Below are positions 52,680-56,718 of a DNA stretch of 64,000 bases, piece by piece; position 1 is the first letter of the stretch, and each line of letters begins with the position of its first letter. A model generated the notes under the pieces. The model was not told the origin of the DNA and did no database searches. It saw nothing but the letters and a program-made list of their open reading frames with translations. Both the position numbers and the translations under genes were made by a program. Source of the stretch: a virus; IMG/VR virus record IMGVR_UViG_3300021256_000005. One strand, 5' to 3'.

Positions 52680-53580
52680 ATTTTATTATAATATATATAT
52701 ATTAATTATATATTATATATATTTATATATTAATTATATATAAATTATATATTATTAATATAATATTATTACGTTTTATTCGGCAGTCGTGTCAACGACT
52801 GACGATAGCGTGACGTTGCATCGCAACGGAACGCGCCCCGCCGACAGGCGGCGTTGCCGACAGGCAACTGTATAATAGTATTATATATATTTATATTATA
52901 TATAATATATATTATATTTATATATATATATATATTATATATTTATATTACATACACTTAGACAGCTACGCCAGTAGCTGGCTAACGGTGCTGGTATTGC
53001 GTAGCAATGCCTGCGCCGAAGCGTCGCAGACATATATATTATATATATTATTATATATATATATATATATATATATATATATATTTATATATTATACAAT
53101 AAGATAATATATTTGTCAAGTATAAAATTATAATTATTTTAATAATATATTTAATTAAATATATTTAAGTATTATATTATATACTATATATTTAGTTAAA
53201 TATATTTAAGTATTATTATAATATATAATTATTTATATATTATTATATATCACTGTATATTATTATATAATAATTAAGCACCATAGTTATTATATATTAT
53301 ATATTACTAATTACATACATCATCAATTACATACATTACTAATTACCAGAGTTATTATTTTATTATTGTTTATTGTTTATATACTTTTGGCTCCTTTTGC
53401 TAACGCAAAAGATCACCAAAAGTTCGTATTCCTTCGCAAGCGAAGAAATACGAGTGTAATATATATAAATAAATATATTATTATATTTATATTATTATAT
53501 ATTTATTATATATTATTATATTATATATTTATTATTATTTATATTATTATATATCTATTATTCTGCTGAGTTATATTATA
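52680..53580. repeat. Pure A/T tracts (including a run of about 16 TA units at 53052-53084) interrupted by three GC-rich multi-hairpin islands
   Basis: The islands are 52781-52870, 52961-53031 and 53383-53455. Each consists of 2-4 adjacent 5-11-bp hairpins with 3-4-nt loops. The flanks, for example 52681-52770, contain no G or C at all. Confidence 0.85.
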
Positions 53581-53599
53581 TTAAACAGTGTGGTTGCTA

Positions 53600-56365
53600 T
53601 ATATTATTATTTATTAAATATTTTATCTATTACTTTATCTATCGTTTGTATTATTCATTCACACTATTGAATTGTTATTATATACCCATACAACAACACA
53701 CAGTCATTTTGTGCGCTGTTTTATATATGCAGTTTAATAAGTTTACCCTAAATTATTAAAACGTCTGTATAAGCCTAATAGATATGTTATTTGAGGTGTG
53801 CCTTTTTTGGCGGGTTCTATTTTGTTGCGTGCTAGTTCCTGAGCTGTTTAGTTTATTATTTAATCGCTGTTATTTGCGCCGCCAAATTATATATACCAAA
53901 CGTCCTGTATTTTTAGCGTGTTTGTATTTGTTTGGTTGCCTATTTAGTTTAGTGTTCTGTAAGATGAGACAGTAAACTATTTGGATGTTATATTTAGTTA
54001 TATATTATATTATATATTTATATATTATTGACTGTCCAATTATTTTTCTGCGCCTTGTATCTTTGTCGGCTTTGTTTTATATTATTACTACAGTATTTTA
54101 TAGAACCGCTTGTCTGAAACATGCCTATATCTACACCTATTGATTGTACGCATGTTTTTATGACACCACCCTATAACTTTTACGTCTGAGAATAAAAACG
54201 TCTATATGAGCGTTTTAGAGCATTGTATAATACATTGATGATTGTCTATGTGTTTTGTTTAGTTAAATAAATTTAATTAAATTTCTTTAAGTATTTATTG
54301 GTGCGCCACTAGAAATATAGGCAGTATTTGACTGCTTTGTTTTGCGATGGTAAACTGTATTAAATAATTATTTGCGTGTTTTATTACCGCCTGCGAAATA
54401 GAATAATGTATATTTATTCATTGTTTATACATTTTGACTTGTTTGGTTGTTAATTTTTGCGGCTGTAATTTTTGGTTGTAGCCGTTAATGTTTGCGATGG
54501 TCTGTTTAATGTGTAAATATACCCCGCCTGTTTATTAAGTATGAGATCGCTGTTGGAGTACTTTTTTAATGTGTTTTGTATGTTATTTAGCTGAAAGATA
54601 GTTAAGCCATTAAGCAGTCAATTAGTTTAGATGATTGTTTTATGTTTGATTGAACAGAGCAATAGTGGTTGTTTCGTATTATTATATAGCACTTAAATGA
54701 TTGCTATTGTTTTGCTGATGGTTTATTCTGCGTTATTAGACAGCTAATTAGTTGAGCAGATATATGCTAATTTGTCCGCGCTGTAATTAGTTTATTTATT
54801 GGAGCAGTAAGTGATTTGCTAGTTCTATATTGCAGTTGTTTAGTCAGTGATGTTTGATGTTAAATTAGTTAGGTTCCTAACTAACTAGGTGCTAAGCCAT
54901 TTTTGTGGCGACTGAGGGTGTTATTTTATATTAATTATATATAGTTACTAATTAGTTACTAGTATTTAGCGGTTGATAATATAGTGCAGGACAATTGCCT
55001 AATTTATATGGTTACTTATTGGTTACTAATTATGTTGTTGTTTTATGCAGTGAGTGGATTCTATTAGGCGATTGAGAAGTTGATTCTGGCAGTTAATTAT
55101 TATTGAATTAAGCCGCTGAATTACTTTATTTGATTGTTGTTTTGGAAGGTGTTATTTTGTGTTGATTCGAAATTATTAGGACGTGATGTAACTAATTGTA
55201 GTTACTAATTGGTTATTAGTTACTTATTAGGTATTAAGTATGTTGTTAGTTATTTATTAGTTACGTTGCGATTTATTTAGTTGCTTCTTAATTTATTTAT
55301 GTTTTGTAATATTACTTATTCTGCGACTGATTAAGTATTGGGAAATTCATTAATCTACTGATTTTGTTATGGTTTCTAAGATATCTTCTGACGTAAAATT
55401 GGTTTTGATTAATAGTTAAATATATTTAATTATTTAGTTGAGTAGTTTTACGATTGCTGTATTGATCTGATTGTAGTTGGTAAGAAGTAATATTATTGGC
55501 TGTTAGAACTATATGGTATTAGCAGAGTATATGATTGTTGTAGTTTAGTGGTTAATTTGTTGTGTTGTTTAATTATTAAACAGTGATTTATTTAGTAGCG
55601 AGCAACAATAAGTAATAAGTTTTTAGTTAGAGTGTTAATTAGTTGTAGTGCTGATTGAACACTGATGGTTTAGTAGTGATTTATTAGAGTGATGATTGAT
55701 TTATTTATGTTTTGGTAAATTTATTTGGTTTTTGTAAATAATTTTAGGTAGATATATTTAATTATTATTTATAATGACTGAGTTGGCAAGTTATGAATGT
55801 TACTTGAAGTATTCAATTCATTTTAATAAGCCTGAGATTTTCTTGTGTCGATTTAACTTATTGAGAGTAGTTTTATAGGACGCAATTCTGATGGAACAGT
55901 TTAACAATAAGGCTACTTGATCGTTTAATTAATTAGTTAGTTATTAGGTTTTTAGTTTTTTAGAGATTGATTTAGTGGATAGTTATTTATTAATGCGGGA
56001 TTTGGTGAGTAGAACTTTTATTTAGTGAATGTGGCAGTTTGATAAGTAGGTGATGGTATAGGTTGTTAGTTAGTAATGTTGATTGGTGGTAGTGTTTATA
56101 GATTAGTGGTTATTTAGTGAATTAGTTAGTGATTGTTGCTGATGTTGATTGGTTGATAGTGTATTAGTTATGATGTTTGTTTGATTGATAGGTGTGATGG
56201 CTGTTTGTGGGTGAGTGAGTTATTTGGTAATTTTATTTGATTTTTTTGTAATTAGTTTTTGTTAGTTTCTTTAATAGTGAGTTATTTATTTGGTGAGTTT
56301 GTTGGATTTTTGGAATGTTAGTGAGTTTTTAGTGAGTTGGGAAGTGAGAAGGGTGAGATTTTGAC
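53600..56365 (+). other. About 2.7-kb ORF-free tract, G+T-rich on the plus strand, with C depletion increasing rightward
   Basis: By my count there are 7 C in 55921-56364 (444 nt). Stop codons are dense in all six frames. Confidence 0.85.
54943..55265 (+). repeat. Cluster of at least 8 GTTACTAAT / GTTACTTAT / GTAACTAAT iteron-like motifs
   Basis: Copies occur at 54944-54953, 54955-54964, 55011-55020 and 55022-55031. Further copies are at 55188-55197, 55201-55210 and 55219-55228, with degenerate copies out to 55265. Confidence 0.7.
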
Positions 56366-56617
56366 GGGGTGTGTGAGTTTACCTCCATATAGCTATTTTA
56401 GCTTTACACTTTTGTCAAAATGTATAAATAACCCCCTTTTGACGTCGGATAATAAAAATTACCCGACATGGCACTTTTTTGACATTTATGTCAAAAACTT
56501 AATAGTTAAATTTTTTTAACTAATTTTTTAATTATATATTATATATTATGCATAATATATTATATATCATATATTATATAAAATTATATTTGACACAATA
56601 TAAATTTCCAGAGCAAC

Positions 56618-56718
56618 AAAATACTTAAAAATCTTTAACCATTCCCATCCCATCAAAAATACTTAAAATAATTTAACTATTATTTTTGCTCTAAAAATAC
56701 TTAAAAATTTTTAACTAT
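56618..56718 (-). repeat. Three direct repeats (about 38-bp period) of AAAATACTTAAAA-N-TTTAAC(C/T)AT, the reverse complement of the TAGTTAAA-N-TTTAAGTATT boxes
   Basis: Copies lie at 56618-56642, 56655-56680 and 56693-56718. They sit 100-200 bp upstream of the consensus promoter at 56815. Confidence 0.75.

Follow-up and report, generated by a model that had tools for sequence, protein, structure and literature searches.

For SPbeta-like phages that encode the single-subunit RNA polymerase (RNAP) YonO, both the replication origin and the YonO promoter are undefined. In SPbeta itself, transcription of the late operon by YonO starts upstream of yonK, with a promoter sequence that is likewise undefined (PMC5467207); the genome opening point (pac) maps between yonP and yonR (bioRxiv 10.1101/2021.11.22.469490), and one SPBRE, the element recognised by the phage master regulator MrpR (YopR), lies in the same spacer (PMC10516654). 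In phage lambda, the iterons of the replication origin (ori) are inverted repeats that bind dimers of the O protein, and the origin is activated by transcription, its function depending on nearby transcription and on negative supercoiling (PMC5043065). Here we describe a family of 20-bp palindromic boxes in the 64,000 nucleotides of IMG/VR virus record IMGVR_UViG_3300021256_000005 (hereafter the window), which cover the greater part of a phage genome of ~77 kb that was assembled from gut metagenomes. As judged from its genes, this phage belongs to the SPbeta-like group encoding a YonO-type RNAP, and the boxes, a 20-bp site with defined half-sites at nine positions, offer a concrete entry point, open to mutation, to the central control region of this uncultivated gut phage.

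Copies and conservation of the box family

When the copies are aligned in one orientation, they read T-A-(G/A)-T-T-A-A-A, four A/T bases, T-T-T-A-A-(G/T/C)-T-A and then TT. The box is an imperfect palindrome, TAVTTAAA-N4-TTTAABTA, with 8-bp arms and a 4-bp centre, in which position 3 of the half-site is any base except T. The original prediction, made from the sequence of the window, had placed the arms at a spacing of N(5-7); the 8-4-8 arrangement describes the boxes better. With at most one mismatch, the symmetric pattern gave nine sites (eight of them exact), all within 53152-56717, against 0.11 expected. With the earlier asymmetric consensus, TAGTTAAANNNNTTTAAGTATT, eight sites were found in the noncoding region at up to one mismatch and ten at up to three, while the remaining ~59 kb of the window contained none even at up to three mismatches. 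In 1000 dinucleotide-preserving shuffles of the noncoding region, made in 250-bp blocks, no site was obtained at up to one mismatch and a mean of 0.16 at up to three, so that the enrichment over shuffled sequence, eight sites against none, is borne out. A+T richness is not the explanation for the family, since neither the shuffles nor the rest of the window ever reach the observed count. Boxes were likewise absent from the extra 4 kb of contig L046, from 12 kb of the late region of a close relative (L043) and from two distant relatives, L044 and L045. These results show that the box family is genuine, non-random and confined to one domain.

On re-reading the sequence, every copy listed in the original prediction was found where it had been placed. 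At the left end, on the plus strand, lie the box TAATTAAA-TATA-TTTAAGTA (53152-53171), 33 bp upstream of the -35 hexamer of a predicted leftward promoter, P_L, and the consensus copy TAGTTAAA-TATA-TTTAAGTA (53193-53212). As had been noted, the segments 53151-53174 and 53192-53215 are identical at 23/24 positions and offset by 41 bp; the pair sits in a 41-bp duplicated context. What had been called a composite copy at 54259-54297 is present as two overlapping plus-strand boxes (54260-54279 and 54274-54293, together 54260-54293) with a common palindromic half-site, TTTAATTAAA. Of the two copies described as partial, that at 55412-55435 stands as the plus-strand box TAGTTAAA-TATA-TTTAATTA (55413-55432); that at 55745-55767 is present as a weak plus-strand box with three mismatches (55745-55764), inside a separate repeat, and its membership of the family is doubtful. 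This second repeat, of ~55 bp (TTTGGTAAWTTTATTTGRTTTTTGTAAWTA...), occurs in two copies, at 55708-55766 and 56222-56278.

At the right end, the box at 56503-56522, TAGTTAAA-TTTT-TTTAACTA (= TAGTTAAATTTTTTTAACTA), is a true and perfect palindrome, in agreement with the earlier reading. It is followed by a minus-strand array of three boxes (56622-56641, 56660-56679 and 56698-56717; 56622-56717 overall) spaced by 38 bp, and TRF likewise gave a 38-bp period for these reverse copies at 56618-56718. The cores of the array are 84-92% alike and its linkers 23-31%. The three tandem dyad boxes and the palindromic box thus fit within 215 bp (56503-56717). A half-site, TTAAGTATT, joined to TTGACA was also verified at 52649-52661.

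Conservation was assessed by comparison with one diverged relative, L048, which comes from the same sample as a 91% identical helicase and whose first early protein is 84% identical to that of the window. L048 aligns to 55152-57447 with 77% identity and many indels, and covers the right-hand six boxes; the left boxes are covered by no relative because the contigs of relatives that were reached through the helicase (L002, L003 and L043) break in (TA)n DNA. In the six boxes, 95/96 half-site positions are identical in L048, against a background of 78%, and the box at 55413-55432 is kept at 20/20 positions. The box spacers carry three changes, all in the box at 56660 (ATAA to AATT), which has zero half-site changes. 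The linkers between the three tandem boxes vary freely between the two genomes. Inside either genome, the array cores (25 nt) are 84-100% alike, compared with 15-46% for the 13-nt linkers. The array spacing is 38/38 bp in the window and 38/37 bp in L048, with the half-sites kept. A lone half-site at 55331 is deleted in L048, and both copies of the ~55-bp repeat are kept. The most conserved noncoding block, 56300-56650, is 92-100% identical, the perfectly palindromic box lying in a part conserved at 100%.

Half-sites that are kept while spacers and linkers drift are the pattern expected of a site read by a protein dimer through two half-sites. From the non-random occurrence, dyad symmetry, confinement and half-site conservation of the boxes we infer protein binding, and they are very probably sites for a dimeric DNA-binding protein. 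The earlier proposal of a protein-recognition box family in the early control region thus gains support from the statistics, from the dyad symmetry and from the way in which this one relative has selectively kept the half-sites. In kind, repeated protein-binding sites are ordinary; their sequence here is lineage-specific.

The junction around the boxes

Every gene left of 52564 lies on the minus strand, and every gene right of 57448 on the plus strand. The 4.9-kb gap between these opposed blocks has no open reading frame (ORF) longer than 67 codons, a G+C content of 21-30% and a GC skew of up to +0.52; the box region is the site of the gene-polarity switch and of the minimum of the cumulative GC skew. 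Between the box clusters lies a C-poor, G/T-rich, ORF-free tract of 2.8 kb (53600-56400, plus strand; C 8.7%, T 45%), in which no strong k-mer family was found. This 4.9-kb noncoding region is a more unusual object than the boxes themselves. The same junction beside the YonO block exists in SPbeta, and its position here is syntenic with the SPbeta pac.

Among the eight sigma-A-type matches of at least 11/12 in the 64 kb, three are in the box region. P_L (TTGACA-17-TATAAT; 53091-53119, minus strand), just outside the left boxes and overlooked in the original prediction, is the only 12/12 match in the window, with 0.007 expected per local shuffle. P_R (TTGACA-17-TATACT with a TG extension; 56815-56843, plus strand) has both hexamers kept in L048, while its spacer varies. 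The third strong promoter-like site is TGGACA-18-TATAAT (54009-54038, minus strand; 11/12), and a weaker leftward candidate, TGGAAA-16-TATAAT (56583-56610, minus strand), is predicted 10 bp from the first box of the array, with its -10 kept in L048. The predicted P_L points left to the helicase and RNAP genes, and the predicted P_R right into the early operon through a leader of ~600 nt, so all the boxes sit between divergent, outward-firing predicted promoters. Upstream of the -35 hexamers, the nearest box edge is 33 bp away at P_L and 98 bp away at P_R. Both core promoters are free of boxes, and overlap is confined to weak 10/12 candidates; the box at 56503 covers the -10-like AATAGT of one such candidate at 56479(+). 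Promoter-like matches of at least 9/12 are not enriched in the region (31 found against 39.7 expected). The end clusters appear convergent, since both share one orientation along the strand of their own promoter. L048 and the window differ by 11-12 bp, roughly one helical turn, in the distance from the boxes to P_R; as a single comparison, this is not significant.

DNA stability was calculated by the nearest-neighbour method in 60-bp windows over the 64 kb, and the 13 least stable of these all fall in the box region. The lowest stability, -45.3 kcal/mol where the mean is -75.1, belongs to the (TA)n tract at 53032-53091, immediately downstream of P_L, and the boxes at 53152 and 53193 fall inside the fifth and sixth least stable windows. 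The seventh is an A+T tract of about seven copies of ATTATAT (56529-56588), flanked by the box at 56503 and the three-box array; this tract and 53032-53244 thus account for places among the seven least stable windows. An inverted repeat, TTTTTTGACATTTATGTCAAAAA (56476-56497), adjoins the box at 56503, is 100% conserved and forms a predicted DNA hairpin of -6.6 kcal/mol (z = -4.9). For the boxes themselves, a hairpin or cruciform role was rejected, their folds of -1.3 to -1.5 kcal/mol being no better than those of shuffles; an intrinsic terminator was also rejected, as the box hairpins are without a G+C stem or T-run and a terminator scan does not flag them.

Comparable junctions were found in more distant loci. 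The helicases of L044 and L045 are 47% and 43% identical to that of the phage, and both loci carry YonG, YonV or HU-like genes. Each has a short divergent junction with three or two perfect DnaA boxes (TTATCCACA) and one near-perfect box, all in one orientation and abutting the -35 of the first early promoter. These clusters (L044 1488-1642, L045 420-586) hold every perfect DnaA box found in the two loci and lie in a G-poor tract beside an A+T-rich stretch. L063, with the gene order helicase-RNAP-HU-YonJ-YonG, has a 1.6-kb noncoding tract with a GC skew down to -0.72 that includes five tandem 12-bp units, TTTATTAACnnn (2184-2243); (TA)n DNA and G+C hairpins precede its helicase operon promoter, resembling hairpin islands at P_L. 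The junctions of BUCT082 and of an Enterocloster phage are short and plain, without such boxes. Read from sequence, repeated protein-binding sites in strand-skewed noncoding tracts are a recurrent feature of the group, with site sequences specific to each lineage. G-poor or C-poor noncoding tracts comparable to that of the window were seen at L063 1950-2700 and L044 ~1500-1650 and, on a smaller scale, in the SPbeta yonP-yonR spacer; the pac-containing part of the latter (L060 24230-24460) has G-clusters and TATCGTAAAA-type repeats in both orientations, which loosely recalls the convergent boxes described here.

Possible roles of the boxes

In the original prediction, the roles considered for the boxes were held to be undecidable from sequence. 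An operator and an iteron function do both remain among the candidates; the sequence nevertheless gives some leverage, since the absence of overlap with the promoter cores, the adjoining meltable DNA and the DnaA boxes or arrays of relatives tilt the balance towards an origin-type role. By analogy, we tentatively propose that the boxes organise a lambda-ori-like replication origin, which of the roles considered is the likeliest, though plausible rather than probable. Dyad sites, meltable DNA, divergent promoters, the switch in polarity and skew, the position of the DnaA boxes in relatives and the lack, in the 68 kb available, of replication genes beyond a neighbouring helicase fit an origin. 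As at lambda ori, where inverted-repeat sites are repeated next to A+T-rich DNA, three tandem dyad boxes and a fourth here bracket a 60-bp A+T tract, between strong predicted promoters. A sequence-specific protein would bind each 20-bp dyad as a dimer, and the dimers would nucleate an origin-type nucleoprotein complex, as at lambda ori, the end clusters lying within or next to the DNA that melts most readily in the window. Transcription from the divergent, outward promoters would leave the box interval under-wound, as follows when the twin-domain model is applied to P_L and P_R. Internal single sites may serve as auxiliary or looping partners, and a coupled effect on the neighbouring promoters is possible alongside.

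Several points weigh against an origin. No initiator protein was found for the boxes, and the nine sites are spread over 3.6 kb instead of being packed in one array, with spacings (37, 38 and 41 bp) that are non-integral numbers of helical turns. The box region has no DnaA boxes, no TTATCCACA with up to one mismatch being found between 52565 and 57447, and those of the relatives could be regulatory and not origin elements. The switch in GC skew is explained equally by the change in gene orientation, the promoters and unwinding elements are predictions, and conservation rests on one relative and on the right-hand six boxes. The four iterons of lambda, moreover, are contiguous and inside the initiator gene, unlike the boxes, which occupy noncoding DNA, are unrelated in sequence and come with no initiator found. 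The iteron origins of plasmids and prophages (P1, F, R6K) resemble this locus in having replicon-specific arrays beside an A+T-rich region, and L044 and L045 share the DnaA boxes of such origins in clusters that abut the first early promoter. In R6K, distant single iterons loop to the main array. The boxes, palindromic, 37-41 bp apart and without DnaA boxes, nonetheless differ from plasmid iterons, which are direct repeats, bound by monomers and helix-phased (PMC5043065).

A regulatory role is the main alternative to replication. The boxes might be operator or upstream-activator sites of a phage helix-turn-helix (HTH) regulator, such as an Xre-type protein of 114 amino acids (aa) encoded within the same early operon, with dimers at the end clusters, possibly looping to internal sites, tuning P_L, P_R and the weaker inner promoters; this is possible, if doubtful. 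HTH dimers classically recognise an 8-4-8 dyad in which the spacer is free, and operators of the Cro, CI and Xre type likewise have a ~20-bp dyad, conserved half-sites, a variable centre and several sites between divergent promoters. Classically, these operators comprise several cooperative sites. The clusters stand upstream of both strong promoters in the same relative orientation, the first array box is 10 bp from the -35 of the candidate leftward promoter, the palindromic box overlaps the -10-like AATAGT, and the distance to P_R shifts by about one turn. Known Cro, CI and Xre operators, however, overlap the -35, -10 or +1 of the promoters that they control, whereas the cores of P_L and P_R are box-free, which makes direct occlusion impossible; nor should a 12/12 promoter and an 11/12 promoter with a TG extension need activation, both being near-perfect. 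Several boxes have no convincing promoter nearby, no box precedes the Xre-like gene, and promoter-like matches show no enrichment. SPbeta offers another regulatory comparison, in that SPBRE is also a repeated element, in a phage with the same late-gene synteny. The SPBRE that we derived from six MrpR-bound SPbeta promoter regions, (C)AAATACAAAWAATATGTAT, has no resemblance to TAGTTAAA-N4-TTTAAGTA; it is 15 bp long, asymmetric and present as one copy inside each promoter, near the gene start, at ten or more promoters across the SPbeta genome, whereas the boxes are palindromic, multi-copy and confined to one 3.6-kb ORF-free tract upstream of promoters. Because sequence, symmetry, copy pattern and position all differ, the boxes are not members of the SPBRE family.

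Palindromes that are dispersed on a kilobase scale and clustered, with mirrored orientation, at the two ends would also suit architectural or segregation sites, either a parS-like centromere or looping anchors at which a tetramer-forming dimer brings the two end clusters together, so that the C-poor tract forms a closed loop. This is unlikely. Pfam and PHROGs scans of proteins from the 68 kb available, with the late module covered in part, and a Pfam scan of the flanks showed no gene of the ParA, ParB, ParR or TubZR type. A broader version, in which the boxes anchor an undescribed phage 'organising centre', is rather speculative and only slightly easier to credit: a kilobase-scale, C-poor, gene-free domain would be under-wound by divergent promoters, a dimer would pair end clusters and internal sites and so fire replication and perhaps packaging, and lineages could exchange one recognition module for another, with host DnaA boxes in some relatives, arrays of 12-bp units in a further one and palindromes here. 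Packaging also enters through the small terminase, whose recognition sites at pac the boxes might be, given that the SPbeta pac is in the syntenic yonP-yonR spacer, that the order YonO-HU-YonJ-YonG-terminase is kept and that the SPbeta spacer likewise has G-clusters and short repeats in both orientations. Known pac sites, though, take up a few hundred bp at most, against 3.6 kb here, every box is an internal palindrome, and there is no sequence similarity to the SPbeta spacer, so that this explanation is distinctly improbable. The suggestion in the original prediction that the boxes are promoters or terminators of the YonO-like RNAP is disfavoured, and we consider it very unlikely: no box (up to three mismatches) occurs upstream of late genes or outside the ORF-free tract, the orientations converge on gene-free DNA, the sites are near-palindromic, and the box hairpins are as weak as shuffles and lack a G+C stem or T-run. 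On its side, the undefined YonO promoter sequence (PMC5467207) means that no consensus can exclude the boxes, and some phage two-barrel RNAPs use A+T-rich promoters (bioRxiv 10.1101/2022.12.01.518664). Finally, the duplicated 41-bp context of the left two copies would be expected if the boxes were functionless, neutral remnants of local duplications in A+T-rich DNA; as the number of sites observed was never attained in local shuffles, cores have stayed alike where linkers have drifted to random levels, and orthologous half-sites are kept far above background, this is hardly credible.

The sequence narrows the options for the role of the boxes, and these are directly testable. If the boxes mark an origin, it would share a junction with the SPbeta pac site, related phages would have swapped host DnaA boxes for a phage-specific site, and divergent early transcription would be built into the origin architecture. 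If they are operators, the regulon of an early regulator would be defined.

Candidate binding proteins and neighbouring features

In the available 68 kb, no replication gene was found besides a UvrD/PcrA-like helicase next to the region, and none of the early proteins scanned showed a match to any known initiator family. A sequence-specific domain was recognised only in the 114-aa early protein, whose gene lies outside the window, about 10 kb downstream of P_R (L046 19199-19543, window-equivalent 66646-66990); it is an Xre-type HTH with a Pfam HTH_3 score of 23.1 against a cut-off of 23. The first early protein, of 191 aa, is predicted to be a long coiled-coil hairpin (AF2, pLDDT 68) with a low-confidence helix-helix-helix-hairpin-helix domain at its C-terminus that is winged-helix-like; Foldseek with this model gave coiled-coil matches only and was uninformative. 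Further candidates for binding are the HU-like protein, for which no PDB sequence match was found at 1e-3, and a 269-aa protein with a possible zinc ribbon. A tblastn search of 68 kb of the ~77-kb genome with SPbeta YopR (MrpR), YonR, AimR and integrases gave no match at E <= 0.01.

Database searches gave no close or distant DNA relative of the region or of the first early gene among GenBank phages, and no relative of the helicase in IMG/VR. Single-box matches in IMG/VR are one-off chance matches, and the leader pattern was not found there; searches of IMG/VR, JGI metagenomes and GTDB genomes for the double-box pattern gave only unrelated tandem repeats. The 191-aa gene had no match in protein-guided scans of contigs from metagenomes and genomes, and no Rfam family was found in the box region at E <= 1. 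An independent contig, NODE_590 of ERZ12302812 (L001/L046), differs from the window by a single base over a 16.5-kb overlap, and that lone difference, G53169T, is at the degenerate half-site position of the box at 53152-53171.

The assignment of the phage to the SPbeta-like group comes from its gene content. A 926-aa ORF (48035-50815, minus strand) matches Pfam RdRP and, by tblastn, SPbeta YonO and proteins of Clostridium and Enterocloster phages; YonF, YonG, YonJ and YonD homologues and an HU-like gene are present in the SPbeta gene order, and the order YonO-HU-YonJ-YonG-terminase is kept between the two phages. A giant ORF of 3679 aa (15217-26256, minus strand) has a PhageMin_Tail domain and encodes a tape measure protein of unusual length. 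It shows neither an RNAP domain nor similarity to RNAPs, which led us to reject the idea of a virion RNAP.

Among the early genes, a 571-aa protein (60297-62012, plus strand) belongs to a widespread unannotated family with 297 homologues and many invariant cysteines. Its AF2 model is confident (pLDDT 84), and since its PDB fold matches are weak LIM-domain (zinc-finger) matches only, it offers no clue to replication. The early operon also encodes GmrSD_N/NsnA-like nuclease-type and ArdC-N/MPTase anti-restriction-type proteins (L046 15649-17789, window-equivalent 63096-65236).

Structured nucleic acids surround the box region. The leader from P_R to the first early gene (56850-57447, plus strand; ~600 nt) folds at -206.7 kcal/mol, against -151 +/- 7 for shuffles (z = -7.8); it is kept in L048, has no Rfam match at E <= 1 and possibly represents a large structured RNA, or 5' leader, of a new type. 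For the leftward leader (53084-52565), folding gives z = -5.8, and G+C-rich multi-hairpin islands lie within (TA)n DNA at 52765-52875, 52945-53035 and 53375-53455, downstream of or flanking P_L. Around the box array, TTGACACAA, TTGATACAA and again TTGACACAA occur at 56590, 56756 and 56815; all are kept in L048, and the copy at 56815 forms the -35 of P_R. On the minus strand, the interval between the homologues of YonJ and YonG contains a full-length ROOL RNA (43126-43683; Rfam RF03087, 300 bits); for SPbeta, a noncoding RNA without annotation has been reported near the YonO-dependent start upstream of yonK.

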